Positions 21,442-42,007 of a DNA stretch of 64,000 nt are shown one piece after another. The stretch lies in assembly GCF_003334255.1 (NCBI RefSeq), contig NZ_QOWU01000014.1; one strand, given 5' to 3'. Source of the stretch: Escherichia coli (GTDB lineage: Bacteria; Pseudomonadota; Gammaproteobacteria; Enterobacterales; Enterobacteriaceae). Made by a program: the position numbers and the translations under genes. The notes under the pieces were generated by a model that had not been told where the DNA came from, made no database searches, and saw nothing but the letters and a program-made list of their open reading frames with translations. Numbering within the stretch: the first letter of the stretch is position 1; each line of letters starts with the position of its first letter.

Positions 21442-21459
21442 ACGTAACTGGTGACTTTT

Positions 21460-21486: not shown

Positions 21487-23253
21487 TTATTCCGTGACTT
21501 CCAGCGTAGTGAAGGCAAACTTCTCGCCATCAAATAGCCCCTGACTGGTTAGTTTTAGCGCGGGGATCACTGGCAGAGAAAGAAACGCCATCTGAATAAA
21601 CGGCTCATCGGGTAACGGACCGCATTCACGGGCGGCGGCTTTCAAGGCGTCAATTTGTTCCGCCAGCGACTGCGCCGTGTCGGTGCTCATCAGCCCGGCA
21701 ATGGGTAACGGCAGATGACTTTGTACCTGGCCGTTACGTACCACGCACAGCCCGCCGCCATCCTGAATCACCTGATTGACCGCCAGCGCCATCTCTTCGG
21801 CACTGCGACCGATCACCACAATATTATGGCTGTCATGGCTGACCGTCGCAGCCAGCGCACCTTCATTCAGTCCAAAGCCGCCAAGCAAACCACAAGCCGG
21901 AGCCAGCCGTTGCCCGTAACGCTCAAGTACGGCAATAAAGCTCACATCATCGCGATCAAAACCATTTTCGCTGTAGACGCTGGAGTGGGAGTGCGTAATC
22001 AATTCGTTATGGATGACGTCAATGACCCGATAGCGTTTTCCGGGCGTAAATTGCAGGGCAAAGTCGCTGGCGGAAACTGGCTGGCGGGCAATGGTGTTGC
22101 CATATGGCGGAGCGGATTGTGCCAGTCTCGCCGACTCTTCCGCCTGTAAGGTTTGCGCATCAATCGGCTCGCCTTTCACCAGTACCTGCTGCACCGTGAC
22201 CTTACGCGCATCGCTCAACAGGACGATATCGGCCTGCTTGCCGGGTGCCAGTAAGCCGAGGTGATTCAGACCAAAGTGGCGCGCCGTCGACCAGCTGGCG
22301 ACGCGATATGCCACATGCAGCGGCACATTGTGTTGTTCGATCAGGCGGCGAATTAAGGCATCGATGTGTCCTTCATGGGCGATCTCCCACGGGTTACGGT
22401 CATCGGTACAGAGCATGCATTGCGGGCTGTTAAATTCGTTGATCAACGGTGCCAGCGCGTTGAGATTGCGGGCAGCGGACCCTTCGCGGATCATCAACGA
22501 CATGCCGAGTTGTAATTTCCGGCGTCCTTCTTCCAGCTGATAACTTTCGTGGCAGTTTTCAATACCCGCAGTAATATAGGCGTTAAGTTCTTTACCACCC
22601 AAACCCGGGCAGTGACCGTCCAGCGTCAGGTGGCGAAATGCATCCAGTTTATCGAGCAGCGCATTCTGCCCGCTAATTACGCCAGGGTAGTCCATCATTT
22701 CTGCAAGGCCGGTAACCTGCGGATGGTCCCGCCAGGCGAGCATCTGTTCAAGGGTAAAACTGGCACCGTTAACATCGCAGCCTTCCAGGGCGGGTACGCA
22801 AGAGCTGACCTGTAAGTACTGGTTTTGCCTTGCCTGTTCGGCACAGCGGGCAAACCAGGCGAATCCGGCTTCGCCCATCACGTTGACGATTTCATGAGGG
22901 TCGCAAATAACGGTCGTCAGGCCGCGCGGCAGGGTAGCGGTTTCAAAAGTGACCGGCGTCATCATGCTGGATTCAATATGCAGGTGAGCATCAATAAACC
23001 CTGGCACCGCCGTTGCGCCGCGAGCATCAATCCGCTGCAAAGCCGGAGCATCAGTGTATTCTGCGCCAACACCGGCAATGTAACGTCCTTTAATCACAAT
23101 TGGGCCGGAAATTTCTCCGCCATTGATCAGGTCGAGAATAGAGACATTATCAATAATATAATCGGCAACAGCGTCGCCACGGGAAACGGCTAACAATTCC
23201 TGGTATTCAGCCCGGCTAATGTGATGAAATTTATGGTTAATAGAATTATTCAT
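21487..23253 (-). CDS. ade: Adenine deaminase
   Basis: 588-aa amidohydrolase-fold ORF (…[14 protein letters not shown]…). Confidence 0.9.
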
Positions 23254-23348
23254 ATTTTTCTCATTTTGATTTTATCAATTTGATTATTATTTATCATAAA
23301 GAAACGTCGCGAGATTATTAAAGAATATCCATTAATGTGCAATTGAAA

Positions 23349-23364
23349 TGTGATAATTATCACT
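23349..23364. promoter_or_regulatory. CRP-like site in the ade/adeQ divergent region
   Basis: TGTGAtaattaTCACt, 9/10 match to TGTGA-N6-TCACA. Confidence 0.35.
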
Positions 23365-23427
23365 GAACCGTTGTTGTCATTTGTTTTACAAAAGCAAGGG
23401 ATTAAATCTCCTCCAATGGACAAAAAA

Positions 23428-24762
23428 ATGAATAATGACAATACCGATTACGTGAGTAATGAATCAGGGACGCTTTCGCGATTATTTAAACTACCTCAGC
23501 ATGGGACCACCGTCCGCACAGAATTGATTGCGGGGATGACCACTTTTTTAACCATGGTGTACATCGTTTTTGTGAACCCGCAAATCCTCGGCGCGGCACA
23601 AATGGACCCGAAAGTGGTGTTTGTTACCACCTGTTTGATTGCCGGTATCGGCAGTATTGCGATGGGGATATTTGCTAACTTACCCGTGGCGCTGGCTCCG
23701 GCAATGGGGCTGAACGCCTTCTTTGCCTTCGTGGTCGTGGGGGCGATGGGCATCTCCTGGCAGACCGGGATGGGCGCAATATTCTGGGGCGCAGTTGGAC
23801 TATTTTTGCTCACGCTGTTTCGTATCCGGTACTGGATGATCTCCAACATTCCCTTAAGTTTACGTATTGGTATCACCAGCGGAATTGGATTATTTATCGC
23901 CTTAATGGGATTAAAAAATACTGGCGTTATTGTCGCCAATAAAGACACGCTGGTGATGATTGGCGATTTAAGTTCTCACGGCGTGTTGTTAGGTATTTTA
24001 GGGTTTTTTATTATAACCGTGTTGTCATCACGTCATTTTCATGCCGCGGTGCTGGTTTCTATTGTGGTGACGTCTTGCTGTGGATTATTTTTCGGTGATG
24101 TTCATTTTAGCGGCGTCTATTCCATTCCGCCTGATATTAGCGGCGTCATTGGTGAAGTAGATTTGAGCGGCGCGTTAACACTTGAACTCGCCGGTATCAT
24201 TTTCTCCTTTATGCTGATCAACCTATTTGATTCATCAGGAACATTAATTGGTGTAACTGATAAAGCGGGCTTAATAGATGGTAACGGTAAATTCCCCAAT
24301 ATGAATAAGGCGCTGTATGTTGATAGCGTCAGTTCGGTGGCGGGTGCGTTTATCGGCACCTCGTCTGTTACTGCCTATATTGAAAGTACTTCTGGTGTGG
24401 CAGTCGGTGGCCGCACGGGGCTGACTGCGGTTGTGGTTGGCGTTATGTTCCTGTTGGTTATGTTCTTCTCACCGCTGGTGGCGATAGTTCCTCCTTACGC
24501 AACCGCCGGAGCGTTAATCTTTGTTGGCGTGCTGATGACTTCGAGCCTGGCGCGCGTTAACTGGGATGATTTTACCGAATCGGTGCCTGCGTTTATTACC
24601 ACGGTGATGATGCCCTTTACTTTCTCGATCACCGAAGGGATTGCACTCGGCTTTATGTCGTACTGCATCATGAAAGTATGCACCGGGCGCTGGCGCGATC
24701 TGAACCTGTGTGTGGTGGTGGTCGCAGCTCTGTTTGCACTGAAGATTATTCTGGTGGATTAG
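23428..24762 (+). CDS. adeQ: Adenine permease (NCS2/AzgA-like)
   Basis: ORF 23350..24762; start at MNNDNTDYVSNESGTLSRLF (444 aa). Confidence 0.85.
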   Translation: MNNDNTDYVSNESGTLSRLFKLPQHGTTVRTELIAGMTTFLTMVYIVFVNPQILGAAQMDPKVVFVTTCLIAGIGSIAMGIFANLPVALAPAMGLNAFFAFVVVGAMGISWQTGMGAIFWGAVGLFLLTLFRIRYWMISNIPLSLRIGITSGIGLFIALMGLKNTGVIVANKDTLVMIGDLSSHGVLLGILGFFIITVLSSRHFHAAVLVSIVVTSCCGLFFGDVHFSGVYSIPPDISGVIGEVDLSGALTLELAGIIFSFMLINLFDSSGTLIGVTDKAGLIDGNGKFPNMNKALYVDSVSSVAGAFIGTSSVTAYIESTSGVAVGGRTGLTAVVVGVMFLLVMFFSPLVAIVPPYATAGALIFVGVLMTSSLARVNWDDFTESVPAFITTVMMPFTFSITEGIALGFMSYCIMKVCTGRWRDLNLCVVVVAALFALKIILVD

Positions 24763-24814
24763 TAACTGGCGAGGGTTTCCAGATATCATGAGTTCTGATT
24801 ACGCAGGAGAACTC

Positions 24815-25267
24815 ATGATCTGGATAATGCTCGCCACGCTGGCGGTAGTGTTTGTGGTTGGTTTTCGGGTGCTGACATCCGGGGCCAGAAAAGCGATTCG
24901 CCGTCTCAGCGATCGGCTGAACATCGATGTCGTACCCGTGGAGTCGATGGTCGATCAAATGGGAAAGTCAGCTGGTGACGAATTTTTACGTTATTTGCAT
25001 CGTCCGGATGAGTCGCACCTGCAAAACGCCGCGCAGGTGTTGCTCATCTGGCAAATTGTCATTGTCGATGGTAGCGAACAGAACCTGCTGCAATGGCATC
25101 GGATTTTACAAAAAGCTCGCCTCGCCGCGCCGATTACCGACGCTCAGGTCAGGCTGGCGCTAGGTTTTCTGCGCGAAACCGAACCTGAAATGCAGGATAT
25201 TAATGCTTTTCAGATGCGCTATAACGCGTTCTTTCAGCCTGCCGAGGGCGTTCACTGGTTGCATTGA
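24815..25267 (+). CDS. yicN: Uncharacterised protein YicN (DUF1198)
   Basis: ORF 24788..25267; start at MIWIMLATLAVVFVVGF (N-terminal membrane anchor). Confidence 0.75.
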   Translation: MIWIMLATLAVVFVVGFRVLTSGARKAIRRLSDRLNIDVVPVESMVDQMGKSAGDEFLRYLHRPDESHLQNAAQVLLIWQIVIVDGSEQNLLQWHRILQKARLAAPITDAQVRLALGFLRETEPEMQDINAFQMRYNAFFQPAEGVHWLH

Positions 25268-25274
25268 AACCGTT

Positions 25275-25344
25275 TCGTCTTATCAGCCTACAGACCGCGC
25301 CTGACCTGTCGGGTGGATAAGACGTTCACGCCGCATCCGGTAAT
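25275..25344. repeat. REP/BIME palindromic repeat pair
   Basis: cgtcttatcagcctacag … gtcgggtggataagacgttcacgccgcatccggtaa: two REP-like units in the yicN-nepI intergenic. Confidence 0.55.
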
Positions 25345-25477
25345 CTTTGCCCTGTTCCGTTTCGATCTTAACTCCAGCTCAAGCAACACCGTAAAAGTTG
25401 CAAAAACGTTAAATGCGTCACACATTTCAATGTTAAAGTGGTCGGCTTTTCCCCTGAAACATGCCACGGGTAACACC

Positions 25478-26668
25478 ATGAGTGAATTTATTGCCGAAAA
25501 CCGCGGCGCGGATGCCATCACCCGACCGAACTGGTCAGCCGTTTTCTCGGTGGCGTTTTGTGTCGCCTGTCTGATTATCGTTGAGTTTTTGCCCGTCAGT
25601 TTGTTGACGCCAATGGCCCAGGATTTAGGCATTTCGGAAGGGGTTGCCGGGCAATCGGTGACCGTGACCGCCTTTGTGGCAATGTTTGCCAGTTTGTTTA
25701 TTACCCAGACAATTCAGGCTACTGACCGCCGCTACGTTGTTATTTTGTTTGCCGTTTTGCTGACGCTCTCCTGCTTGCTGGTTTCCTTTGCTAACTCATT
25801 CAGTTTGCTTTTAATCGGTCGTGCCTGTCTGGGGCTGGCGCTGGGCGGGTTCTGGGCGATGTCGGCGTCGCTGACCATGCGTCTGGTGCCGCCGCGTACG
25901 GTGCCGAAGGCGCTGTCGGTGATCTTCGGCGCGGTTTCTATTGCGCTGGTGATTGCCGCGCCGTTGGGCAGTTTTTTAGGCGAGCTTATCGGTTGGCGCA
26001 ATGTCTTTAATGCGGCGGCGGTGATGGGCGTGCTGTGTATTTTCTGGATTATCAAATCATTGCCTTCACTGCCAGGCGAACCCTCGCATCAGAAACAAAA
26101 TACTTTCCGCTTATTACAACGTCCGGGTGTGATGGCAGGGATGATCGCCATCTTCATGTCTTTCGCCGGGCAGTTTGCTTTCTTCACGTATATTCGCCCG
26201 GTGTATATGAACCTGGCGGGATTCGGCGTGGATGGCTTAACGCTGGTGCTGTTGAGTTTTGGTATCGCCAGCTTTATTGGTACGTCGCTTTCGTCGTTCA
26301 TTCTTAAACGTTCGGTAAAACTGGCCTTAGCAGGCGCGCCGTTAATACTGGCTGTGAGTGCGTTGGTACTGACGTTGTGGGGAAGCGATAAAATCGTTGC
26401 TACCGGCGTGGCGATTATCTGGGGGCTAACTTTTGCATTGGTTCCCGTCGGCTGGTCAACGTGGATCACCCGCTCGCTGGCCGATCAGGCAGAAAAAGCC
26501 GGGTCTATTCAGGTGGCGGTTATTCAGCTTGCTAATACCTGTGGCGCGGCAATCGGCGGTTATGCGCTGGATAATATTGGTCTGACTTCGCCGTTGATGT
26601 TGTCCGGCACATTGATGTTGCTGACTGCATTGTTGGTTACTGCAAAGGTGAAAATGAAGAAATCCTGA
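25478..26668 (+). CDS. nepI: Purine ribonucleoside efflux pump NepI (MFS)
   Basis: ORF 25313..26668; start at [23 protein letters not shown] (396 aa). Confidence 0.85.
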
Positions 26669-26708
26669 TATCAGGTAAAGAAGCGTTGGTCAGTAGTTGT
26701 TGCTGTTC

Positions 26709-27002
26709 TTACATATCCGGGCATTCTACCTTACCCAACGCTTCCCAATAATTGCTCTGATTATTACGTTCCATCGCCACGATGGCCTCGCGTATATGTT
26801 GTTTATTGTTTTCATCTGACAACATTAACTTTTCCCACGCTTCATCTGATAATGACGCCTGTGGCGTGCAAATTTTACGTAAATCTTGTAATACCGTGGT
26901 TTTCTCTTTTGCGGACTGCAGTGAGCTAAAAGGCGACTCGGCGTATACGATGCCTGGCATAGCGAAAAAAGTGAAAATAAGCAGTAGTGTCGTTGGTTTC
27001 AT
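26709..27002 (-). CDS. yicS: Secreted small protein YicS
   Basis: 97 aa with N-terminal signal peptide MKPTTLLLIFTFFAMPGIVYA. Confidence 0.75.
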   Translation of the reverse strand: MKPTTLLLIFTFFAMPGIVYAESPFSSLQSAKEKTTVLQDLRKICTPQASLSDEAWEKLMLSDENNKQHIREAIVAMERNNQSNYWEALGKVECPDM

Positions 27003-27223
27003 GGATTCAACCTTTTACAAATGTGTATCGAATGAAGCATAAGTGTAGTTTGCTTTCATCGCTCTCATCATGCTGTACGAAACGCGCTTGCGTGGTCAGT
27101 AAGAAGTGCCAGACTTTATATTCCACTTTTATTCCTTTTTATTCTTATCGATAGCGTTTCGTTTTTTAAACCGCAGCGACCTTACCGCTATAGTCAGGTA
27201 ATCATTAATAAAAGGATAAAAAA

Positions 27224-28042
27224 ATGAAACTGACAACACATCATCTACGGACAGGGGCCGCATTATTGCTGGCCGGAATTCTGCTGGCAGGTTGCGACCA
27301 GAGTAGCAGCGATGCAAAACACATTAAAGTTGGCGTTATAAATGGCGCAGAACAAGATGTCGCGGAAGTCGCTAAAAAGGTGGCAAAAGAGAAATATGGC
27401 CTCGATGTTGAACTGGTAGGATTTAGCGGTTCGTTGCTACCGAACGATGCGACAAATCATGGCGAACTTGATGCGAATGTCTTCCAGCATCGACCCTTTC
27501 TTGAACAAGATAATCAGGCGCATGGTTATAAACTGGTAGCGGTGGGAAATACGTTTGTCTTCCCTATGGCGGGTTATTCCAAAAAAATCAAAACCGTGGC
27601 GCAAATAAAAGAAGGCGCGACAGTGGCGATCCCCAACGACCCGACCAACCTTGGTCGCGCACTTTTACTGTTGCAAAAAGAGAAGCTAATTACTCTGAAA
27701 GAGGGAAAAGGGTTATTACCTACCGCGCTGGATATAACCGATAATCCTCGTCATTTGCAGATTATGGAACTCGAGGGGGCGCAGCTCCCGCGCGTACTGG
27801 ATGATCCCAAAGTTGATGTAGCGATTATCAGCACCACTTACATTCAGCAGACCGGGCTTTCTCCGGTGCACGACAGCGTATTTATTGAAGATAAGAATTC
27901 GCCGTATGTGAATATTTTGGTGGCACGGGAAGATAATAAGAATGCAGAAAACGTGAAGGAATTTCTGCAATCTTATCAATCACCCGAAGTCGCTAAAGCG
28001 GCAGAAACCATTTTTAACGGTGGCGCGGTGCCTGGCTGGTAA
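27224..28042 (+). CDS. nlpA: Lipoprotein 28 (methionine-binding-like)
   Basis: 272 aa; lipobox LLAGC after the signal peptide. Confidence 0.85.
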   Translation: MKLTTHHLRTGAALLLAGILLAGCDQSSSDAKHIKVGVINGAEQDVAEVAKKVAKEKYGLDVELVGFSGSLLPNDATNHGELDANVFQHRPFLEQDNQAHGYKLVAVGNTFVFPMAGYSKKIKTVAQIKEGATVAIPNDPTNLGRALLLLQKEKLITLKEGKGLLPTALDITDNPRHLQIMELEGAQLPRVLDDPKVDVAIISTTYIQQTGLSPVHDSVFIEDKNSPYVNILVAREDNKNAENVKEFLQSYQSPEVAKAAETIFNGGAVPGW

Positions 28043-28045
28043 TTC

Positions 28046-28969
28046 TCACTTATGCCGCGCCGGACGATTTATTTTTCTGGCGCGGCGACGGGAATCCATT
28101 GAAATCAAAATCACCGATGACAGAATCAGCAGCGTTCCCAGCCAGTCCGGTAATGTGAACGTGATCCCCAGCAACAGCAAAGAGAGTAGCGCGCTACTTA
28201 ATGGTTCTGCACAGCTCAAAATGCTGGCTTTTGGACCGCCAATTAATTGTGCTCCTTTCAGGTACAGACTAAATGTCAGGGACGTACCAATGACCACCAA
28301 ATAAAAAAACGCCAGAATCAAACTGCCGTTAACGACAAAGTTTGTTCCTTGTCTGGCATAAAAAGGCAACAGAATCAGACCGCCAATCAGCATACTCCAG
28401 CCGACGACTGGTAACGTGCCATAGCGGGCAATTAGCGTTGAGGGATAGGTGGTATAGAATGCAGCAGCAAATGCCGAGGCAATGCCCCAGAACAACGCGG
28501 CAGGAGAGATCGATAATGACGTCGGATTACCGTGTGTCACCAATAAAAAAGTCCCGACCAGCGATGTCAAAATAGCGCAGAAAACCAGAATGCCCGGGCG
28601 CGATTTACGCACCAGTGAGAACCAGGCGACGATAATCGTCGGTGAGAGGAATTGCAGCACCGTTGCCGTGGCTGCGTTCGATTTTTCGATGGTTAGCAAA
28701 AAAGTGAGCTGTACAGTTAGCGCGCCAACCACGGAAAAAATCAGCAGGCTAATGGCATCTTTATGATTGTTAATAATAGAAAAGATTTTATCGCCATGAA
28801 CAAATGACAGCGTCAGTAGAATCAAACCGGCGAATATCAAACGCGTCATAGTCAAAAACTGCGACGACATCTGGCTTTGCTCCATGATGTATTGCGCGCA
28901 GACCCCTGAACTTCCCCACAACACGGCGGCAATCAGAACGTTCAGCATCCCCTTTCTGGTGGAACCCAT
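28046..28969 (-). CDS. yicL: EamA/DMT-family inner membrane transporter YicL
   Basis: 307-aa polytopic membrane ORF. Confidence 0.8.
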
Positions 28970-29079
28970 TTTTCCCTCTGCATACTGTTTTGTCGTTTAT
29001 GTATGCAGGCATGATAGCAAAAATGGCGAGGATGGCTCTGTTTGCGCCACGCCGATTTTTCTTAGCCCAGACTGGTGAG

Positions 29080-30264
29080 CTAAATATCTTTAATAAACAG
29101 CAGGCAAATCATCGCAATACCCAACATCCCTATCGCCAGCCAGAACAACGCATGGTAGCTCCAGATTTCAACCATAATTCCGTCAACAGAGCCGGCGATA
29201 ATCCAGCCGACGCGTGAAGTATTTGCATATAACGTTGTCGCAGAGCCTATTTTTTCAGGCATCAAGTCCTGAAAATAAAGCATGCCGATACCACAGAGAA
29301 TACCAAGGAAGATGGCATTAAGAATTTGCAATTCCAGCTCAACCGCCGGAGTCGTCGCCATGAGTACGCTGGCGTAAAAACACATTCCACTCACGATAGC
29401 AATGAGCATTAATAGTCGCTTGCCAATACGTTTCATGTAATAGCCTGCGATTAACATCATCGGAATTTCCAGACCGGCAGCGATACCAATCATTTCTCCA
29501 GCCAGTTTATCGGTTAGATGCAGTTCATCAATAATAAATAGCGGCATATTTATCATGTAGAGATTATTCGCCGCCCACATCATTGAACAGACCACAAAAA
29601 GTAGCCGCGTATCCCGCTTCCTGTGGGTGGAGGGTAAAATTTCTACGGGTTGGGTAACGACAGGAATATTTCTTTGTATTGATGGCAAAAACAACCAGAC
29701 TATCAGTCCGCAAACAACAAATGCGATGGCAGCGGTGAGATACATCACTTTAAAACTAAATCCCATTGCCAGTTCATAAGCGAGCGGTGGCCCGATAACC
29801 CAGGCAAGCGAGATCTGAGCACGTAAAAATGTACTGAACATGACCGTCTCACGGCCTGTTCTGTCGGCGTGTTCACGGGCGAGGGCGAACATTTGCGGGT
29901 TTGCGGTGGAAGCAAAACTACTCAGAAGTACGCCCGTTGAGAGGAGAATGAAGTAGTTGCGATTCCACGCAAAAAGCGTGCAGGCCAGCACTCCAAATAA
30001 GCAACATAGCAGAATCAGTAATTTACGGTCGCCTTGTTTATCGGAGTGCCTTGCCAGAAATTGACTGACCAGAATTCCCATAATAGCGCTACCGGTGAAG
30101 AAAAAACCTACCATTATAGGACGGGCTTTCAGTTCATCTGCGAGGAATATACTTAGGGTAGGAGTCTGAAGAGCGCCCGCAATACCCGTCAGAAAGGCGA
30201 CAAGTAAAAATGCCGCGGCAGTGAGATCAAGTATTTTTGATGGAGTGGTAGCCGTTTTTTGCAT
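29080..30264 (-). CDS. setC: Sugar efflux transporter SetC (MFS)
   Basis: 394-aa MFS ORF. Confidence 0.85.
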   Translation of the reverse strand: MQKTATTPSKILDLTAAAFLLVAFLTGIAGALQTPTLSIFLADELKARPIMVGFFFTGSAIMGILVSQFLARHSDKQGDRKLLILLCCLFGVLACTLFAWNRNYFILLSTGVLLSSFASTANPQMFALAREHADRTGRETVMFSTFLRAQISLAWVIGPPLAYELAMGFSFKVMYLTAAIAFVVCGLIVWLFLPSIQRNIPVVTQPVEILPSTHRKRDTRLLFVVCSMMWAANNLYMINMPLFIIDELHLTDKLAGEMIGIAAGLEIPMMLIAGYYMKRIGKRLLMLIAIVSGMCFYASVLMATTPAVELELQILNAIFLGILCGIGMLYFQDLMPEKIGSATTLYANTSRVGWIIAGSVDGIMVEIWSYHALFWLAIGMLGIAMICLLFIKDI

Positions 30265-30900
30265 TCTTCTGAATCACCGGGCGAAAAAATATAACTGAGT
30301 TACAAATAAGTACCAGTCGAATGAGTATTGTATTAAGAATTTTTGAGTATCGCTGATACAACCAGAAAGCAATGCTAGCGCAATATTATAGGGCCAGCAA
30401 TTGAGATTATTAGTAAAAGCATGTTAAGAATTAATTACCGAATTTATATATTAATTATAGTAAGGCAATGAGCTATTTTTGATAGTAAAAATAAAACAAG
30501 TTGATTTGATATATTAAATGAACAAATTAATCTTGATGGCAGTCTGATTATTGGTGAAGTTTATAGTCAGTTTTTTTCGCCAGCGGTTAAAGAAATAGAA
30601 TAGTCGTATAAAAAAGGGTGTTCTGGGGCGAGTAAAACAACATCTTCACCTTAATGGCGATACAGTTGGCTGAGAGTCAGCAGGGGGGCAAATCACCTGC
30701 AAATAAACACGGCGCATACTGGCGTGAATATCGCGGATGCGTTCGAGGACAGAAGAACCGACAGGCGGATTCTTCAGCCGCTCATCGTCCATCACAAAAC
30801 CTTAGACCAGGTATTCCTGAAGCCGATTGAATATTGAGCAGTAGAAAATATCTGGATTGACAGTATTACAAGGGGTTGGAGAACGTCAGGAGAGGCATTT

Positions 30901-30995
30901 TGGCGGAAGATCACAGGAGTCGAACCTGCCCGGGACCGCTGGCGGCCCCAACTGGATTTGAAGTCCAGCCGCCTCACCGGAGACGACGATCTTCC
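30901..30995 (-). tRNA. selC: tRNA-Sec (selenocysteine, UCA anticodon)
   Basis: Reverse complement of 30901..30995 is GGAAGATCGTCGTCTCCGGTGAGGCGGCTGGACTTCAAATCCAGTTGGGGCCGCCAGCGGTCCCGGGCAGGTTCGACTCCTGTGATCTTCCGCCA, recognised as E. coli selC. Confidence 0.9.
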
Positions 30996-31287
30996 GCGCC
31001 TCGATTGCTACATGGAGGCGGGGCGCATTATAGCTACTTCCTTGAGTTTCTACATCCCCCAGATCAGTTTTTTCCGCCTAATACACGCAGCGTATTATCA
31101 CGAAAGCATTATAGTTCATATAAAACCCATATTTTACAATGATATATGAGCGGAATTAACGCTACCACGATCACATAAAACAAGAATCATAAATTAATAA
31201 CCAGATATCGGAATATTCGCTCTCACAGGGATGGTTTACAAAATGCGTTATCGGTCTCAGCACCCCTATAGCATCAAGGAAAAGCAG

Positions 31288-32670
31288 ATGAAGAGTGAAG
31301 TGTTGTCCGTTAAAGAGAAAATTGGTTATGGCATGGGAGACGCCGCCAGCCACATTATTTTCGATAACGTAATGTTATATATGATGTTCTTTTATACCGA
31401 TATTTTTGGCATTCCTGCCGGTTTTGTCGGAACCATGTTTTTGGTCGCTCGTGCACTGGATGCGATTTCCGATCCTTGCATGGGGTTGTTGGCCGATCGA
31501 ACGCGCTCTCGCTGGGGTAAATTTCGTCCGTGGGTACTGTTTGGCGCACTGCCATTCGGGATCGTCTGTGTACTGGCCTATAGCACGCCAGATCTCAGTA
31601 TGAACGGCAAAATGATCTATGCAGCAATTACTTACACCCTACTTACCTTACTTTATACCGTCGTCAATATCCCTTACTGCGCATTGGGTGGTGTAATCAC
31701 CAATGACCCGACTCAGCGTATCTCGCTGCAATCCTGGCGTTTTGTGCTGGCGACCGCGGGAGGCATGCTTTCTACTGTTCTGATGATGCCACTGGTTAAT
31801 TTAATTGGCGGTGATAATAAACCACTCGGTTTCCAGGGCGGTATCGCGGTCCTTTCCGTGGTGGCATTCATGATGCTGGCATTTTGTTTCTTCACCACTA
31901 AAGAACGCGTTGAAGCACCACCTACAACAACGTCTATGCGGGAAGATTTACGTGATATCTGGCAAAACGACCAGTGGCGGATTGTCGGTTTACTAACCAT
32001 TTTCAATATCCTGGCGGTGTGCGTACGCGGTGGGGCGATGATGTATTACGTCACATGGATTTTGGGCACGCCGGAAGTGTTTGTCGCTTTTCTCACCACT
32101 TATTGCGTGGGTAACCTGATTGGTTCCGCACTGGCAAAACCTCTGACCGACTGGAAATGTAAAGTCACTATCTTCTGGTGGACGAACGCCCTGCTGGCAG
32201 TGATTAGCCTCGCGATGTTCTTTGTTCCCATGCAGGCCAGCATCACTATGTTTGTCTTCATCTTCGTGATTGGTGTGTTGCATCAACTGGTGACACCTAT
32301 CCAGTGGGTAATGATGTCCGATACCGTCGACTACGGCGAGTGGTGCAATGGTAAACGCCTGACCGGGATCAGTTTTGCTGGCACGCTGTTTGTGCTCAAA
32401 CTGGGGTTGGCCTTCGGCGGCGCTCTTATCGGCTGGATGCTGGCTTATGGCGGATATGATGCGGCAGAAAAAGCGCAGAACAGCGCCACGATTAGCATCA
32501 TTATTGCGCTATTCACGATTGTTCCGGCGATCTGTTATTTGCTGAGCGCGATTATCGCTAAACGCTACTACTCACTCACGACGCACAATCTGAAAACCGT
32601 TATGGAACAGCTGGCTCAGGGTAAACGCCGTTGCCAGCAACAATTCACCTCTCAAGAAGTGCAGAACTAA
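31288..32670 (+). CDS. yicJ: GPH-family glycoside/cation symporter YicJ
   Basis: ORF 31231..32670; start at MKSEVLSVKEKIGYGMGDAASH (460 aa). Confidence 0.85.
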   Translation: MKSEVLSVKEKIGYGMGDAASHIIFDNVMLYMMFFYTDIFGIPAGFVGTMFLVARALDAISDPCMGLLADRTRSRWGKFRPWVLFGALPFGIVCVLAYSTPDLSMNGKMIYAAITYTLLTLLYTVVNIPYCALGGVITNDPTQRISLQSWRFVLATAGGMLSTVLMMPLVNLIGGDNKPLGFQGGIAVLSVVAFMMLAFCFFTTKERVEAPPTTTSMREDLRDIWQNDQWRIVGLLTIFNILAVCVRGGAMMYYVTWILGTPEVFVAFLTTYCVGNLIGSALAKPLTDWKCKVTIFWWTNALLAVISLAMFFVPMQASITMFVFIFVIGVLHQLVTPIQWVMMSDTVDYGEWCNGKRLTGISFAGTLFVLKLGLAFGGALIGWMLAYGGYDAAEKAQNSATISIIIALFTIVPAICYLLSAIIAKRYYSLTTHNLKTVMEQLAQGKRRCQQQFTSQEVQN

Positions 32671-32679
32671 GGAACGGCA

Positions 32680-34998
32680 ATGAAAATTAGCGATGGAAAC
32701 TGGTTGATTCAACCTGGCCTCAATTTGATTCACCCGCTTCAGGTGTTCGAGGTTGAACAGCAGGATAATGAAATGGTGGTCTATGCTGCCCCCCGTGATG
32801 TGCGTGAACGTACCTGGCAGCTTGATACGCCTTTATTTACGTTGCGCTTTTTCTCCCCACAGGAAGGTATTGTCGGTGTGCGGATTGAGCATTTTCAGGG
32901 GGCGCTGAATAACGGTCCTCATTATCCGCTCAATATTTTGCAGGACGTGAAGGTCACAATCGAAAACACAGAACGTTATGCTGAGTTTAAAAGTGGCAAC
33001 TTAAGCGCGCGTGTCAGCAAAGGTGAGTTCTGGTCACTGGATTTTCTGCGCAACGGCGAACGTATTACCGGTAGTCAGGTGAAAAATAATGGCTACGTGC
33101 AGGACACGAATAATCAACGCAATTATATGTTTGAGCGGCTTGATCTTGGCGTTGGCGAAACAGTTTACGGTCTGGGAGAGCGCTTTACTGCCCTGGTGCG
33201 CAATGGCCAGACGGTAGAGACCTGGAACCGGGACGGCGGCACAAGTACTGAACAGGCGTATAAAAATATCCCGTTCTACATGACTAACCGTGGTTATGGG
33301 GTACTGGTCAATCATCCCCAGTGTGTCTCTTTTGAAGTGGGATCGGAGAAAGTCTCCAAAGTGCAGTTCAGCGTTGAGAGTGAATATCTCGAATACTTTG
33401 TTATCGACGGCCCGACGCCGAAAGCGGTACTTGATCGTTATACCCGCTTTACTGGTCGTCCGGCGCTGCCGCCCGCGTGGTCCTTCGGCCTGTGGCTAAC
33501 CACTTCATTTACCACCAACTACGACGAAGCGACGGTAAACAGCTTTATCGATGGTATGGCGGAACGCAATCTGCCGCTGCATGTTTTCCACTTTGACTGT
33601 TTCTGGATGAAAGCCTTCCAGTGGTGCGATTTTGAGTGGGACCCGCTGACTTTCCCTGACCCGGAAGGGATGATCCGCCGCCTGAAAGCGAAAGGACTGA
33701 AAATCTGCGTCTGGATTAACCCCTATATCGGTCAAAAATCCCCCGTCTTTAAAGAGTTACAAGAGAAAGGCTATTTACTCAAACGCCCGGACGGTTCGCT
33801 ATGGCAGTGGGATAAATGGCAGCCAGGTCTGGCGATTTATGACTTTACCAATCCGGATGCCTGCAAATGGTACGCCGACAAACTGAAAGGTCTGGTCGCG
33901 ATGGGCGTTGATTGCTTTAAGACCGACTTTGGCGAACGTATCCCAACTGATGTTCAGTGGTTTGACGGTTCCGATCCGCAGAAAATGCATAACCATTATG
34001 CGTACATCTACAACGAACTGGTGTGGAACGTGCTCAAGGACACCGTTGGTGAGGAAGAAGCTGTCTTGTTTGCCCGCTCGGCCTCCGTCGGTGCGCAGAA
34101 ATTCCCGGTACACTGGGGTGGCGATTGTTACGCTAACTACGAATCAATGGCGGAAAGCCTGCGCGGTGGTTTGTCTATTGGCCTTTCAGGTTTTGGCTTC
34201 TGGAGCCACGATATCGGCGGCTTTGAAAATACCGCTCCGGCGCACGTTTACAAACGCTGGTGCGCGTTTGGTTTGCTCTCCAGCCATAGCCGTTTACACG
34301 GTAGCAAATCTTATCGTGTGCCGTGGGCCTACGATGATGAGTCCTGTGATGTGGTGCGCTTCTTCACGCAACTGAAATGCCGCATGATGCCGTATCTGTA
34401 TCGTGAAGCTGCGCGTGCGAACGCGCGGGGTACGCCGATGATGCGGGCCATGATGATGGAGTTCCCGGACGATCCGGCTTGTGATTACCTTGACCGTCAA
34501 TACATGTTAGGCGACAACGTGATGGTTGCGCCGGTGTTCACTGAAGCGGGCGATGTGCAGTTCTACCTGCCGGAAGGTCGCTGGACACACCTGTGGCACA
34601 ACGATGAACTCGACGGTAGTCGCTGGCATAAACAGCAGCACGGCTTCCTGAGTCTGCCCGTTTATGTGCGTGATAACACTCTACTGGCGCTGGGCAACAA
34701 CGATCAACGTCCCGATTACGTGTGGCACGAAGGCACGGCATTCCACCTCTTTAATCTGCAAGACGGGCATGAAGCCGTCTGTGAAGTGCCCGCTGCTGAC
34801 GGATCGGTGATCTTTACTTTAAAAGCAGCACGTACTGGCAACACGATTACTGTGACTGGTGCGGGCGAGGCGAAGAACTGGACACTGTGCCTGCGCAATG
34901 TTGTGAAAGTAAATGGTCTGCAAGACGGTTCGCAGGCTGAAAGTGAGCAGGGGCTGGTGGTGAAGCCTCAAGGGAATGCGCTGACAATTACGTTGTAA
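32680..34998 (+). CDS. yicI: Alpha-xylosidase (GH31)
   Basis: 772-aa ORF, GH31 family (…WINPYI…, …FKTDFGE…). Confidence 0.9.
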
Positions 34999-35050
34999 TC
35001 TATTGATGGAATGCCGGGTACGTCTGAGTCGTACCCGGCGAGATTGATGT

Positions 35051-36760
35051 TTACCGCACCGGCTCCGTCGATGTAACTTCACCGCTGGAAACGATGCCAG
35101 CATTCATGGTTTGAGTCACTTGCTGCTTTGCGGCGTTCACGGCATGCAATTGCCCGCTAACCGTAGGTTTCAACGGGACATTGGCCTGAATATCGCCACT
35201 GGCGGTAAGCTGAATATTGCCGTCGCCAGTCAACGGTAATTCAGGCCATCCCCACTGTTGCAAAATATTCACCGGCACACCGCGTCCATTCAGGCTGATA
35301 TGTGTCTGACGTTGTGGCGTTTGTGAAACACTGGCGGTGGCTTCCAGAATGCCTTTTTCAGTAAATGCACTCAGTTCGCTGATATTCACCGTGCTGCTGT
35401 TGGCGGTCAGCGCCAGCGACGGGCGACGAACATCAACACGATTGAATGTCGCGGCGGCGGCATTCAGATTCGCCGAGCCACTCCAGACGCCCCATTTATG
35501 ATCGGTAACCAGCGTCAGGTTGGCACCGTAACCATCGAGCGCGGTGAGCTGCCACGGGAAGTCAGGGTCGATATCAATGATCAGATTGCGGCTGGCGCTA
35601 AATCTCTTCAGTTGCAGGCTGTTTAACCAACCGGGTGTCGTTTCCATCCACAACTGTTGCCAGTTTTTCGGCAAGGTATATTCCAGCCCGGCAATTGCCG
35701 CATCATCAAGGATCAACGTTTTCCCGTCACGCAGCCAGTTCCCTGACGTTCTGACCATACCCCCTTCCCAGCGGCTGGTGAACTGGCGCAGCGCTACGCC
35801 CTGCGGGGAAAATTCCGTGTTTATAATCGGGTCAAATAAATGCAGCGAACCATAAATGAACTCGCTAGCGTTCATCGACAGTTTGCCTTCCTGTGTCTGC
35901 CAGTCATCTTTACTGAAGGTCATGTTGCGCAAGCTGAGATCGAGGTCGGTCACCGCCCAGTCCGGACCTTGCAAACGAGCATCGATCACTTCCAGGCGAC
36001 CAATCTGCAACGACGGGACAGAGCGTAATGGCGCAAAGAAGTCGGTTAGCGATTTTTCGCTTTGTAGACGTATATCCGCCATGCGCAGGTTTTCCACTTG
36101 CCAGCTGCCGTCGGCGTTACGCTGCGCGTTTCCGGTTAATGTCCCGCGGGCGATGTCGGCACCCAGGTTAGTCAGCGTAACGCGATCGTTATCAATACTG
36201 CCTTCAATCAGTACATTGGTGGCAGGAACATCATTGAGCGAAAGCGATCCGGCACTAAACTGAATCTGCGCCTTCGTACCCAGCACTTTACCGGCTTTTG
36301 GTGACCACGGAACTACGCCGCCATTTACCCGCTGCGCGCTCAGTTTCCATTCGCTATTCGGGCTATTAAACGCCATATCACGCAGTTGCAGACGATCGGC
36401 TTTGAACGGTAGCGGCGCGGTCTGGTCGGTGAGATTCAGCGTCCCGTTTTCCAGCAGGATGGTATCGACATGGCGTGGTTCGGTCAGTTGCCGACTGCTT
36501 AGCGCAATGTCGACACTTTTGGCCACCAGGGTCGCGGGCTGGCCATCACGACCAAACGTGACGTTCTCCAGCACGATATGAGATGGCGCGGAAAAACGGT
36601 GATCCATCGCCCCGAAGGCCAGATGATAGTCGCTATTCTCGGAAACCCATGCGCTGATATGTTCTGCTCCCCAGCGGGTTTGCAGAAGAAAATAGAGGCC
36701 AGCGATCGCCACTAACAGAGCGATGAGAATGTAGAGAAGCAGCTTCCCAATAAATTTCAT
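35051..36760 (-). CDS. yicH: AsmA-family protein YicH
   Basis: ORF 35051..36784 minus; start at MKFIGKLLLYILIALLVAIAGLYFLL (N-terminal anchor). Confidence 0.8.
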   Translation of the reverse strand: MKFIGKLLLYILIALLVAIAGLYFLLQTRWGAEHISAWVSENSDYHLAFGAMDHRFSAPSHIVLENVTFGRDGQPATLVAKSVDIALSSRQLTEPRHVDTILLENGTLNLTDQTAPLPFKADRLQLRDMAFNSPNSEWKLSAQRVNGGVVPWSPKAGKVLGTKAQIQFSAGSLSLNDVPATNVLIEGSIDNDRVTLTNLGADIARGTLTGNAQRNADGSWQVENLRMADIRLQSEKSLTDFFAPLRSVPSLQIGRLEVIDARLQGPDWAVTDLDLSLRNMTFSKDDWQTQEGKLSMNASEFIYGSLHLFDPIINTEFSPQGVALRQFTSRWEGGMVRTSGNWLRDGKTLILDDAAIAGLEYTLPKNWQQLWMETTPGWLNSLQLKRFSASRNLIIDIDPDFPWQLTALDGYGANLTLVTDHKWGVWSGSANLNAAAATFNRVDVRRPSLALTANSSTVNISELSAFTEKGILEATASVSQTPQRQTHISLNGRGVPVNILQQWGWPELPLTGDGNIQLTASGDIQANVPLKPTVSGQLHAVNAAKQQVTQTMNAGIVSSGEVTSTEPVR

Positions 36761-36880
36761 GGTCTTCCATCCCGTGAAATGCACATAAGGGAGTTATGCA
36801 CGATTTACGCGCAATCCTCAAGGCGGGAATGGTTAAAGAGGTGAGACTGCGGCGGTAATTATCTTACCGCCGCCAGTGAA

Positions 36881-38272
36881 TTACTGTTTTTCTGGTGGGA
36901 AAATCAGATTCAGCACGATGGCAGTAATACCGCCCGCGGCGATCCCGGAGGAGAGCAGGTTTTTCAGCCATTCAGGGGCAAACTGCAAAATCAGCGGCTG
37001 CTGAGACACGCCCAGACCAACCGCCAGCGACAGCGCGATAATCAGAATCGCCCGACGGTTCAGCGGCTCACGAGAAACGATACGCACACCGGAGGCGGCG
37101 ATGGTGCCAAACATTACAAGCGTTGCGCCGCCCAGAACCGGTTCTGGAATGTGTTGTACAAAACCGCTCACTGCCGGGAACAGACCCAGCACGATCAACA
37201 TCAGCGCGACGACAAAACCGACATAGCGGCTGGCAACACCAGTCAACTGGATCACTCCGTTGTTTTGCCCGAAGCAGGAGTTCGGGAAGGTGTTAAACAC
37301 CGCCGAAACAAACGAGTTCAGGCCGTTTGCCAGCACGCCGCCTTTCAGGCGTTTCATGTACAGCGGACCGGACACTGGCTGTTCGGAAACGTCAGAGGTC
37401 GCCGTGATATCGCCAATGGTTTCCAGCGAAGTGATCATAAAGACCAGCATCAGCGGCAGCAGCAGACTCCATTCAATGCCAAGACCGTAATAGAGCGGCG
37501 TTGGCACCATAATCAGTTCTTGCGTCATAGGTTCGTTGCTTTCTGGCAACATGCCCATAAACCACGCCAGCGCATATCCGGCCGCCATCGCAATTACCAG
37601 TGAGGCCACGCGTAAGTAAGGGTTACGTTGACGGTTAAGCAGGATAATTAAGGCTAAGACCACGCCTGCCAGCAGCAGATTTTTCGGTGCGCCGAAGGTG
37701 TTATCGCTCATGGCTGCGTAACCGCCGCCAATGGACGTTAACCCAACCTGAATTAGCGACAGGCCGATAATCATCACCACAACGCCAGAAACCAGCGGCG
37801 TAATAATGCGGCGCGCCAGATGCAGAACGCGGGAGATCACCATCTCGGTGCAACTTGCCAGCATCAACGTGCCGAACAAAGCCGCCATCATGGTAGGAAC
37901 ATCAGCACCACCGGTTTTCAGCGCGGTACCGCCCATAATCAGCGGGGCAACAAAGTTGAAGCTGGTGCCCTGAATAGACAACAGCCCGGAGCCAACCGGA
38001 CCCCAGGCCTTAATTTGAATAATCGATGCCACACCGGAGGCAAACAGCGACATACTAATAATGTGTTGCGTGTCTTGTGCCGGTAAACCCAGCGCCTGGC
38101 AGATTAATAGCGCTGGCGTGATCACCGCAACGAACATCGCCAGCAGATGCTGACAGGCGGCAAACAGGGTTTGAGGAAGCGGCGGACGATCTTCAAGACG
38201 GTAAATCAGTTCGCTGTTTTGAGTCTGCGCAACCGGTTGCGCATTTTCTGACTCGAGGGTGGAAACAGACAT
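36881..38272 (-). CDS. xanP: Xanthine permease (NCS2)
   Basis: ORF 36881..38281 minus; NCS2 transporter. Start at [16 protein letters not shown]. Confidence 0.85.
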
Positions 38273-38551
38273 CGAAAACAATCCCGTGGTAGCAAAGCGG
38301 GCATTTTAGCTGACCGAAAGAGAAAAGCAAACGTTTGCCACATCCTCATCTAAATATTTAAATGAGATAAATGCACTTTTTTATATAACTTTTGGTATTT
38401 TTCTGCTTAAAATCCATGCCATTTGTTCATTAACAGCTGAGAATTTGACCCAGGAAAGCATAACTCGATACCCGTCATAGTTCATGAAGTTGCCACTGCG
38501 CGATGAAGTATGACGAGTATGAAAGAGTGATGCGGATACAAAGGAGTAACT

Positions 38552-39757
38552 ATGTTTCATCTCGATACTTTAGCAACGCTTGTTGCCGCAACGCTGACGT
38601 TGCTGCTCGGGCGTAAGTTGGTCCATTCCGTCTCCTTTTTGAAGAAATACACCATACCGGAACCTGTTGCGGGTGGTTTGTTGGTGGCGCTGGCGCTACT
38701 AGTACTGAAAAAAAGCATGGGCTGGGAAGTCAACTTTGATATGTCCCTGCGCGATCCGTTAATGCTGGCTTTCTTCGCCACCATTGGCCTGAACGCCAAC
38801 ATTGCCAGTTTGCGTGCCGGTGGGCGTGTGGTTGGCATCTTCTTGATTGTGGTTGTTGGTCTGTTGGTGATGCAAAATGCCATTGGCATTGGTATGGCTA
38901 GCTTGTTAGGGCTTGATCCGCTGATGGGGCTGTTGGCCGGTTCTATTACGCTTTCCGGCGGTCACGGTACGGGCGCTGCGTGGAGTAAATTGTTCATTGA
39001 ACGTTATGGCTTCACCAATGCGACGGAAGTGGCGATGGCCTGTGCAACGTTCGGTCTGGTGCTGGGCGGCTTGATTGGCGGTCCGGTGGCGCGCTATCTG
39101 GTGAAACACTCCACCACGCCGAACGGTATTCCGGATGACCAGGAAGTCCCGACGGCGTTTGAAAAGCCGGATGTGGGACGCATGATCACCTCGTTGGTGC
39201 TGATTGAAACTATCGCGCTGATTGCTATCTGCCTGACGGTGGGGAAAATTGTTGCGCAACTTTTGGCTGGCACTGCTTTTGAACTGCCGACCTTCGTCTG
39301 TGTACTGTTTGTTGGCGTGATTCTGAGCAACGGTCTGTCAATAATGGGCTTTTACCGCGTCTTTGAGCGTGCGGTATCCGTGCTGGGTAACGTAAGCTTG
39401 TCGTTGTTCCTGGCGATGGCGTTGATGGGGCTGAAACTGTGGGAGCTGGCTTCGCTGGCGCTGCCGATGCTGGCGATTCTGGTGGTACAGACCATCTTCA
39501 TGGCGTTGTATGCCATCTTCGTTACCTGGCGCATGATGGGCAAAAACTACGATGCGGCAGTGCTGGCTGCGGGTCACTGTGGTTTTGGCCTCGGTGCAAC
39601 GCCAACGGCAATCGCCAACATGCAGGCGATCACTGAACGCTTTGGCCCGTCGCACATGGCGTTTTTGGTGGTGCCGATGGTCGGTGCGTTCTTTATCGAT
39701 ATCGTCAATGCGCTGGTAATTAAGTTGTATTTGATGTTGCCGATTTTTGCCGGTTAA
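38552..39757 (+). CDS. gltS: Sodium/glutamate symporter GltS
   Basis: 401-aa ORF. Confidence 0.9.
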   Translation: MFHLDTLATLVAATLTLLLGRKLVHSVSFLKKYTIPEPVAGGLLVALALLVLKKSMGWEVNFDMSLRDPLMLAFFATIGLNANIASLRAGGRVVGIFLIVVVGLLVMQNAIGIGMASLLGLDPLMGLLAGSITLSGGHGTGAAWSKLFIERYGFTNATEVAMACATFGLVLGGLIGGPVARYLVKHSTTPNGIPDDQEVPTAFEKPDVGRMITSLVLIETIALIAICLTVGKIVAQLLAGTAFELPTFVCVLFVGVILSNGLSIMGFYRVFERAVSVLGNVSLSLFLAMALMGLKLWELASLALPMLAILVVQTIFMALYAIFVTWRMMGKNYDAAVLAAGHCGFGLGATPTAIANMQAITERFGPSHMAFLVVPMVGAFFIDIVNALVIKLYLMLPIFAG

Positions 39758-39800
39758 CCGATGAAGCGGCGGTAGAAGTGCCGCCGCAACAAAGACAAAT

Positions 39801-39829
39801 GCCTGATACGCTTCGCTTATCAAGCCTGC
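39801..39829. repeat. Degenerate REP-like element
   Basis: gcctgatacgcttcgcttatcaagcctgc in the gltS-recG intergenic. Confidence 0.4.
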
Positions 39830-39925
39830 GTATTGATTCATAATTTATTGAATTTGTAGGGTGATGAATCGCATCCGGCAGGAAGGTAGGGTAACCTGAA
39901 ATGGCGGTCTTCTCACTGCCGCCTT

Positions 39926-42007
39926 TTACGCATTCGAGTAACGTTCCGTCTCCGGCATCCAGCGTTCTATCAGGGCTTTTGCCTGTTGTGGGTAACGTTC
40001 GTGAATATGGCGTGCCAGGCGCTGAACTTCCGGGATCATCGCCTGATCGCGCAGTAAATCCGCCACTTTAAATTCAGCATTACCCGTCTGACGCGTGCCT
40101 AACAATTCGCCAGGGCCGCGAATCTCCAGATCTTTTTGCGCAATCACAAAACCGTCGTTACTGTCGCGCAGCACTTGCAGGCGAATTTGCGCCGTTTTAG
40201 AAAGCGGCGTTTTGTAGAGCAGCACGCAGTGAGAAGCCACCGCGCCACGACCTACGCGCCCGCGCAGCTGGTGTAACTGCGCCAGACCCAGACGCTCCGG
40301 GTTTTCGATAATCATCAGACTGGCGTTAGGCACATCAACGCCGACTTCAATAACGGTTGTGGCAACCAGCAGGTGTAGCTCACCTTGTTTAAACGACGCC
40401 ATCACCGCCTGTTTCTCGGCAGGTTTCATCCGCCCGTGTACCAGGCCAACGTTCAACTCTGGTAGCGCCAGTTTCAACTCTTCCCAGGTAGCTTCCGCCG
40501 CCTGCGCTTCCAGCAATTCCGACTCTTCAATCAACGTACAAACCCAGTATGCCTGACGACCTTCAGTTATGCAGGCGTGGTGCACGCGGTCAATGATGTC
40601 GGTACGGCGGGTATCAGGAATAGCGACCGTAGTCACTGGCGTGCGGCCTGGCGGCAGCTCATCTATCACCGAGGTATCGAGATCGGCATACGCAGTCATT
40701 GCCAGCGTGCGGGGGATCGGCGTGGCGGTCATGATCAACTGATGCGGATGGAAGCCCTGCTGCTGGCCTTTCTCCCACAATGCCAGACGCTGATGCACGC
40801 CAAAACGATGCTGTTCGTCGATAATCACCAGCGCCAGGCCGTTAAACTGCACCTGTTCCTGGAAGATGGCGTGTGTACCGACAATCATCTGCACCTGACC
40901 GCTGGCGATGGCTTCCTGCTGTGCCAGCCGTGCTTTACCTTTCTGCTTACCGGCGAGCCAGCCCACTTCGATACCGAGCGGTGCAAACCAGTTGCGGAAG
41001 TTATTGGCGTGCTGCTCGGCGAGTAATTCGGTTGGTGCCATCAATGCTACCTGTTTGCCGTGGGCAATCGCACGCAACGCGGCGAGGGCGGCGACCAGCG
41101 TTTTACCGGAACCTACATCGCCCTGCACCAGACGCATCATCGGCACATCCAGCGCCATATCGCGCTCGATCTCCGCCACTACGCGTGCCTGTGCGCCCGT
41201 TGGCTTGAACGGTAAGGCGGCGAGGAGTTTATTTTTCAGCGTGTCATTGGCGCTCAGCGGCTGGGCATGAAAACGCTGTGCTCCGGCACGTAAGGCTAAC
41301 ATGCTGAGGTTGTGCGCCAGCAGTTCTTCCAGAATCAGACGACGTTGCGCCGGATGCTGCCCGGTTTCCAGATCGCTAAGCTGTAGCGTCGGTGGCGGGC
41401 GGTGCAAAGTGCGCAACGCTTCCGGTAGCGTCATCATTCCTTGTGACAGTTCCGGCGGCAGGAGTTCTTCAATGGCGCAGGTGTCGAGCAGATCCAGCGC
41501 CTGGTCGGTTAATTTACGCAGCGTGGCCTGCTTTACGCCTTCCGTTGTTGGATAAACCGGCGTGAGCGTTTCCTGTAATTCTGGCGTGCTGAGATCGCCC
41601 TGCACGCGGTATTCCGGGTGGATCATCTCCGCACCATATTTACCGCGCTTTGCTTCGCCATAAGCCAGTACACGGCGGCCCGCCGCCAGGCTATTTTTCA
41701 TTGCCGCGCTGAAATTGAAAAAGCGCATGGTGAGGATGCCGGAACCGTCGCTGATCTGGCAGGTCATCATCCGCCGACCGCCGAAGGAGATATTGCAGTT
41801 CAGCACTTCGCCTTCCACCGTGGCATAAACGCCCGGCAGTAGTTCTCCGATGGGGTAGAGATGGGTGCGATCTTCGTAGCGCAGGGGAAGGTGTAAGAGT
41901 AGATCCTGCACGGTATGCAGGTTGATTTTCGCCAGTTTGTTACTAAGTGCTGCGCCAACGCCCGTTAGGGAACTGAGTGGGACAGCATCTAACAGGCGAC
42001 CTTTCAT
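39926..42007 (-). CDS. recG: ATP-dependent DNA helicase RecG
   Basis: ORF 39926..42040 minus; Walker A GDVGSGKT, DEQH box. Start at MKGRLLDAVPLSSLTGVG. Confidence 0.9.
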   Translation of the reverse strand: MKGRLLDAVPLSSLTGVGAALSNKLAKINLHTVQDLLLHLPLRYEDRTHLYPIGELLPGVYATVEGEVLNCNISFGGRRMMTCQISDGSGILTMRFFNFSAAMKNSLAAGRRVLAYGEAKRGKYGAEMIHPEYRVQGDLSTPELQETLTPVYPTTEGVKQATLRKLTDQALDLLDTCAIEELLPPELSQGMMTLPEALRTLHRPPPTLQLSDLETGQHPAQRRLILEELLAHNLSMLALRAGAQRFHAQPLSANDTLKNKLLAALPFKPTGAQARVVAEIERDMALDVPMMRLVQGDVGSGKTLVAALAALRAIAHGKQVALMAPTELLAEQHANNFRNWFAPLGIEVGWLAGKQKGKARLAQQEAIASGQVQMIVGTHAIFQEQVQFNGLALVIIDEQHRFGVHQRLALWEKGQQQGFHPHQLIMTATPIPRTLAMTAYADLDTSVIDELPPGRTPVTTVAIPDTRRTDIIDRVHHACITEGRQAYWVCTLIEESELLEAQAAEATWEELKLALPELNVGLVHGRMKPAEKQAVMASFKQGELHLLVATTVIEVGVDVPNASLMIIENPERLGLAQLHQLRGRVGRGAVASHCVLLYKTPLSKTAQIRLQVLRDSNDGFVIAQKDLEIRGPGELLGTRQTGNAEFKVADLLRDQAMIPEVQRLARHIHERYPQQAKALIERWMPETERYSNA

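Follow-up and report, generated by a model that had tools for sequence, protein, structure and literature searches.

A vacant selC island-integration site beside a rhuM relic and an AT-rich block upstream of setC in an Escherichia coli strain

INTRODUCTION

The selC gene for tRNA-Sec is a classic target of pathogenicity islands, and its vacant form is the textbook reference state against which LEE, PAI I of strain 536, SHI-2 and SPI-3 are defined. SPI-3 is the selC-linked island of Salmonella enterica, and rhuM is one of its genes. A 24-bp selC repeat has been published (PMC6174562). In enteroaggregative E. coli (EAEC) 042, a 21-bp repeat is followed by setC, yicL and nlpA, described as 'backbone' genes (PMC7058095). 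RhuM itself has been proposed as a toxin domain tied to restriction-modification loci (PMC3710099).

The DNA between selC and setC has also been studied in K-12 from the side of transcription. It holds promoter island 3834632_331, which is bound by H-NS in all ChIP data sets (Table 1 of PMC3661553) and is linked to a gene predicted to be foreign (PMC3661553). Genomic SELEX with the RpoS and RpoH holoenzymes gave peaks within the same spacer, again in K-12 (PMC5493296). Promoter islands are reported in K-12 to be occupied by H-NS and RNA polymerase while yielding little productive transcription (PMC3661553, PMC5493296).

Here we analyse the selC locus in a 64,000-nt stretch of E. coli DNA (contig NZ_QOWU01000014.1), called the window below. 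An earlier note, made from the sequence alone, had proposed that the site is unoccupied by an island. All parts of the locus are already annotated or published for K-12 and none is new; what we provide is an account of how the vacant site is built and how it compares with occupied and otherwise rearranged loci.

RESULTS

Layout of the selC locus

The features of the locus are collected in Table 1. ARAGORN identified a single tRNA in the window, a tRNA-Sec with anticodon UCA, which Rfam family RF01852 recognises with 83.8 bits (gathering score 47). The gene is identical to selC of BL21(DE3). Since selC and setC are co-directional, the 3′ end of selC points at the setC start codon, and the distance between them, previously given as about 636 bp, is exactly that (30265..30900). 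On the other side yicJ starts at 31288, so that 31287 is the final base of the selC-yicJ intergenic region. In this region a perfect TATAAT lies on the selC strand at 31027..31032, followed by a GC-rich discriminator, ~25-30 nt upstream of the mature tRNA-Sec 5′ end. From its sequence and position it is likely the selC promoter; a simple promoter scan did not flag it.

Table 1. Features of the selC locus, in window coordinates
Feature	Position	Strand	Basis
yicL, far edge of the variable selC-yicL interval	28046..28969	-	blastn
setC, putative sugar efflux MFS transporter, 394 aa, 46.2% GC	29080..30264	-	ORF list and annotation
AT-rich block upstream of setC, promoter island 3834632_331	30278..30608		composition and PMC3661553
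RhuM-family pseudogene fragment, 162 bp (yicT/b4653 in K-12)	30661..30822	-	tblastn and annotation
selC-proximal flank, 78 bp	30823..30900	-	alignments
selC, tRNA-Sec (UCA), intact	30901..30995	-	ARAGORN and Rfam RF01852
selC 3′-terminal 24-nt core, TTCGACTCCTGTGATCTTCCGCCA	30901..30924	-	one copy in the window
selC-yicJ divergent intergenic region	30996..31287		sequence reading

Few other signals were detected around selC. No stable hairpin or terminator was found in the region after the gene (fold z -0.04), and an Rfam search of 30000..31500 with E-values up to 1 returned tRNA-Sec and no other RNA. In a consensus scan of the spacer, promoter-like sites were not in excess and the only terminator-like site, at 30660..30646, was weak; a simple sigma-70 scan gave 1 site where 3.1 were expected.

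The selC site is vacant

An integrated island should be betrayed by a duplicate selC 3′ end or by an integrase, either of which the earlier note had named as refuting its proposal. A 29-mer of the selC 3′ end, searched with up to 3 mismatches over the whole 64 kb, matched selC alone. In the spacer, the best local alignment of the 30-nt selC 3′ end scored 9, to be compared with 8.5 +/- 1.1 for shuffled sequences (216 of 500 shuffles reach 9). The integrase of the BL21(DE3) selC island, used as tblastn query against the whole window, gave a best E-value of 3.2. In 38 of 120 other Enterobacterales species the same query recovered an integrase, whole or in fragments, at a distance of 150-300 bp on the 3′ side of selC, and fragments in the window would thus have been detected. 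With a single core, no integrase and no repeat, we conclude that nothing is integrated at selC here: the tRNA 3′ end has no direct repeat and the integrase no trace, either between 30265 and 30900 or elsewhere in the window. The further statement that the spacer holds no cargo ORFs is correct for intact ORFs and has to be amended for a RhuM-family pseudogene fragment, described below.

Occupied strains give the most direct view of what vacancy means at this site. In BL21(DE3), selC is followed by a tyrosine integrase 300 bp downstream, ~21 kb of cargo, the 24-nt repeat, the spacer, the rhuM relic and setC; the distal repeat carries a 3-nt deletion. Strain 219 shows the same order, with a CP4-like island and an exact 24-nt distal repeat. 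In both strains the sequence that follows the distal repeat is, base for base, that of the window from 30900 downwards. Because the flank of selC in the window is what follows the distal repeat in occupied strains, the window represents the pre-integration (attB) state. The unoccupied integration site read from the sequence alone is thereby borne out. Assignment of the 24-nt core as a putative attB is based on its identity to the core of the occupied strains.

The selC-proximal flank

Next to selC lies a 78-bp flank whose parts differ in distribution. Its first 15 bp (30886..30900) are common to most E. coli, including LEE-bearing and rhuM-bearing strains, and two separate query breakpoints (787 and 61) both map to window position 30886. 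The remainder is also present in Escherichia sp. E1V33 and in a divergent E. coli, with a z of ~18 against shuffles. We considered whether the first ~100 bp 3′ of selC might be a fossil of an island left end. Comparison with the left end of a LEE strain gave a modest z of 5.5, owed mostly to the first 15-30 nt, and comparison with the BL21 island gave a non-significant z of 0.8; the idea was rejected.

A RhuM-family fossil in the spacer

The annotation pipeline PGAP lists 30661..30822 as a pseudogene of the type 'RhuM family protein', interrupted by a stop and incomplete at either end. The MG1655 pseudogene yicT (b4653) corresponds to window 30661..30792. By tblastn, the full-length RhuM of strain AVS0285 (345 aa) aligns with the fossil over residues 121-185 at 63% identity (E 3e-20). 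What is left amounts to 54 codons: a TAA at 30802..30804 interrupts the frame, 8 codons are deleted, and the N- and C-termini are gone. The segment is a pseudogene and no functional member of the RhuM family.

The family assignment is supported at several levels. Full-length RhuM matches Pfam PF13310 at E 6e-118 and the PADLOC candidate defence family PDC-S05 at E 6e-173, and the relic peptide itself matches PDC-S05 at E 8e-11; NCBIfam has no family for RhuM or for the relic. At the DNA level, relic positions 30694..30823 are ~75% identical to the full-length E. coli rhuM allele, with one stretch of ~75 nt at 95%, and the relic is 87% identical over 75 nt to rhuM of Pseudescherichia vulneris. 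A full-text literature search for yicT gave irrelevant matches only.

The AT-rich block and setC

The conspicuous AT-richness reported earlier for 30290..30600 is real: these 311 bp have 28.6% GC, the window as a whole has 50.9%, and just 0.8% of equally long stretches reach so low a value. The block has the sequence character of a promoter island, a ~300-bp AT-rich stretch beside the accessory gene setC. We placed island 3834632_331 on the window by our own conversion, which assumes +1,977 bp from U00096.2 to U00096.3. Outside the waa locus a second low-GC patch was observed at 23118..23550, where the lowest value for 311 bp is 30.5%; MG1655 coordinate mapping puts it around the intergenic region of adeQ and adeD.

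Among 5,426 complete E. coli genomes, the stretch 30265..30660 is present in 3,676, as a single-copy chromosomal sequence conserved at 96-100%, and setC is full length in 3,722 (69%). About 31-32% of the genomes lack setC and the AT-rich block. In AVS0285 and Escherichia sp. E1V33, setC is absent from the selC-yicL interval, and blastn homology with these setC-less loci resumes between ~28998 and 29034. The retrieved loci of 120 other species contained no SetC homologue on the downstream side of selC. Relic, AT-rich block and setC make up an accessory segment of 1.8 kb with 28.6-46% GC and without island boundaries. IS1 insertions were observed in the setC-selC spacer region or within setC in several strains, and this region is thus also one that collects insertion sequences.

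rhuM beside selC in other genomes

In AVS0285, the strain without setC, a full-length rhuM starts 52 bp from selC. This allele occurs at full length in 843 E. coli genomes (15.5%), and ~3,285 further genomes match it over only 69-75 nt, which corresponds to the relic. Escherichia sp. E1V33 carries the K-12-type flank, a rhuM remnant consisting of the initial 42 nt, a different gene and then yicL. A full-length rhuM would thus have lain 3′ of selC early in Escherichia and would have decayed independently in different lineages.

The search was extended to other species using the exact selC 3′ end and one genome per species, which gave 120 Enterobacterales loci. Downstream of selC, rhuM or fragments of it were present in 22 of the 120 species, within 600 bp in 15 of them, and in all 27 matches rhuM had the orientation of selC. 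The genera concerned include Morganella, Hafnia, Photorhabdus, Erwinia, Enterobacter and Pseudescherichia, and rhuM was also found in E. albertii, where an integrase remnant is followed by a full-length rhuM.

In two cases the selC 3′ end recurs in degenerate form on the far side of rhuM, and no integrase lies in between: just beyond the full-length rhuM of AVS0285 (5258..6434 of the retrieved locus) and beyond the full-length rhuM of P. vulneris (~+250..+1410 from selC). These are 2 of the ~11 examined loci with full-length or long partial rhuM, so that rhuM as a generally repeat-bounded cassette was rejected. That rhuM is nevertheless a recurrent integrase-less cassette, targeting or retained at selC across the Enterobacterales, draws support from its constant co-orientation with the tRNA and from the occasional degenerate selC-end boundary; we consider this quite unlikely. 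Were it true, the cassette could be cis-mobilisable by borrowing selC-specific integrases, yicT would be its fossil and the setC segment its replacement.

Frequency of the vacant state

Junction states were counted with a 150-nt query spanning the selC-spacer junction, run against the same 5,426 complete E. coli genomes. In 2,493 of them (46%) selC and the spacer are directly joined, the commonest single state. Percentages of the other states come from an evenly spaced sample of the ranked matches: in ~20% of the sampled rows the spacer with its 24-nt repeat is split from selC, in ~27% only selC and 15 bp are matched, and in ~7% selC alone.

It had been suggested that the empty state is informative about strain background. 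It does exclude lineages that have LEE or another island at selC; otherwise it is a weak discriminator and says little about background, because 46% of complete genomes share it.

The neighbourhood of selC shows further polymorphism. The nlpA-yicS junction (window 26850..27400) falls into two deep classes, with at least 99% identity in 2,952 genomes and 80-90% in 1,758, the latter number being close to the 1,750 genomes without the setC-side spacer. This suggests that the nlpA-yicS classes and the setC-side spacer belong to a linked haplotype block beside selC. We also considered whether selC-B/eip, the second island site linked to selC, lies between nlpA and yicS. As 5,349 of the 5,426 genomes have this junction uninterrupted, it is not the insertion point. 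Finally, AVS0285 and the LEE-bearing strain DCE7 carry genes for a BglG-family antiterminator and PTS IIA/IIB directly after yicI (10879..12986 and 10408..12515 of the respective retrieved loci). The window (from ~34999 onward) and K-12 lack these genes there, a presence/absence polymorphism near selC.

Strain background of the window

The K-12 comparison that the earlier note had called for gave a match to MG1655 at 7000 of the 7001 bases in 27218..34218. Over a wider range, window 75..47000 differs from MG1655 by 7 SNPs. Beyond ~47 kb the divergence is 0.5-2.5%, with the dinD region (49-50 kb) 87.6% identical, and in the waa locus (59-64 kb) the sequence is 71-77% identical to MG1655 or unmatched, with GC down to 24%. 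The waa divergence indicates an LPS core type other than that of MG1655. From 47 to 64 kb the window is 100% identical to strains G6/7, G8 and B-1109. At its other end, positions 1..77 match the end of an annotated IS1B element with 100% identity, and base 78 is where sequence from inside K-12 ibpA takes over; an IS1 end running into ibpA means that the strain has an IS1 in this small heat-shock gene.

DISCUSSION

We read the locus, with a probability of about 0.88, as a K-12-type locus with an intact tRNA-Sec, whose 3′ 24 nt are a vacant attB and whose spacer is a composite of older events. The 3′-terminal 24 nt would serve as attB for P4-family tyrosine integrases. From occupied strains it is known that islands recombine site-specifically inside this 24-nt core, with the tRNA regenerated at the integrase-proximal end and a 24-nt repeat remaining at the distal end. 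An unfilled selC site putatively stays a usable target. The spacer would consist of the 78-bp Escherichia-conserved flank, the 162-bp rhuM fossil and the ~330-bp AT-rich block upstream of setC. In this lineage, we infer, selC was once followed on its 3′ side by a full-length rhuM, whose truncation probably coincided with the arrival of the setC segment or came later. The old rhuM/setC element presumed here may have been an integrated one, and it is marked by no distal repeat or other boundary.

A simpler view would be that the locus is pristine ancestral backbone, with a spacer that is just the native promoter region of setC and nothing foreign ever present. The lack of an integrase, a repeat and an intact cargo ORF would agree with this view, as would the single-copy spacer, 96-100% conserved among its carriers, and the designation of setC, yicL and nlpA as 'backbone' genes (PMC7058095). 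It is already contradicted by the rhuM fragment, with its stop and both ends missing. It is also opposed by the absence of setC and the AT-rich block from some 31-32% of the E. coli genomes, from E1V33 and from downstream of selC in the loci retrieved for 120 species, and by the 28.6% GC of the block, which is published as H-NS-bound with a gene predicted to be foreign. We regard this view as highly improbable.

The opposite view takes ~29035..30843 (1.8 kb: rhuM relic, AT-rich block and setC) as a single degenerate mini-island that integrated at selC and later lost its integrase and distal repeat. We think this rather unlikely. Exactly this segment is replaced in setC-less genomes, by rhuM and a 165-aa hypothetical gene in AVS0285 and by a 404-aa ORF in E1V33, and its GC content is low (46% in setC, 29% upstream), with H-NS binding reported. 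A repeat-bounded unit can also be envisaged from the rhuM genes of AVS0285 and P. vulneris, each bounded distally by a degenerate selC end. However, neither the segment nor the window retains any repeat or integrase trace, and a repeat after rhuM is present in only 2 of ~11 full-length or long partial rhuM loci examined. A setC-rhuM link was found in no other genome, no SetC homologue lies beside selC in the 120 species, and unrelated deletions and insertions could equally have built the segment. Recent occupation followed by precise excision, with attB restored and the empty state being a secondary loss in the lineage, appears very unlikely to us. Variable occupancy among close relatives, as in strain T16R, in which selC is split from a setC-spacer stretch 100% identical to that of the window, and the integrases found beside selC in 38 of 120 species, which make turnover at selC a common event, speak for it. 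Since precise excision would leave an identical sequence, 'never occupied' and 'cleanly lost' look alike; being traceless, excision has no specific sequence support, and the empty state is the commonest single one in E. coli (46%).

On the preferred reading of a vacant attB beside a composite spacer, an 'empty' selC site is not a 'blank' one: a rhuM fossil and AT-rich DNA, H-NS-silenced according to K-12 reports, precede an accessory gene. This combination points to the selC-yicL interval as a long-lived zone of turnover even in island-free strains. For strain typing, a vacant selC rules out only those lineages whose selC carries LEE or a different island. The significance beyond annotation is slight, as nearly half of the complete E. 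coli genomes are in the vacant state.

Comparison with described systems

The window has the selC locus in common with the LEE insertions of EPEC and EHEC and contains no LEE sequence. Homology of DCE7 to the window stops 15 bp 3′ of selC (30886); LEE strains lack the K-12 spacer, and DCE7 has no setC-side match at all. The integrase-bearing islands of BL21(DE3) and strain 219, selC-A of EAEC 042 and GIselC of LEE-negative STEC share the tRNA and the 24-nt core with the window, and beyond the island come the window's spacer, the rhuM relic and setC. Their hosts carry a tyrosine integrase at 150-300 bp from the 3′ end of selC, cargo of several kilobases and a distal repeat, in contrast to the window, which has none of the three.

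With SPI-3 the window shares a gene family. The fossil belongs to the family of rhuM (PF13310) and is placed and oriented relative to selC as rhuM is in many Enterobacterales. Of SPI-3 itself, the window holds just 54 stop-bearing rhuM codons and no other gene, a comparison drawn from the literature. The AT-rich block is the same element as one of the H-NS-bound promoter islands of Panyukov and Ozoline (2013), with no difference found, H-NS binding being reported in K-12.

The closest system is MG1655. The window differs from it in starting within the IS1 in ibpA and in diverging beyond ~47 kb; at the locus itself (selC, yicT and setC; b3658, b4653 and b3659), the gene order and the 636-bp spacer with yicT are identical.
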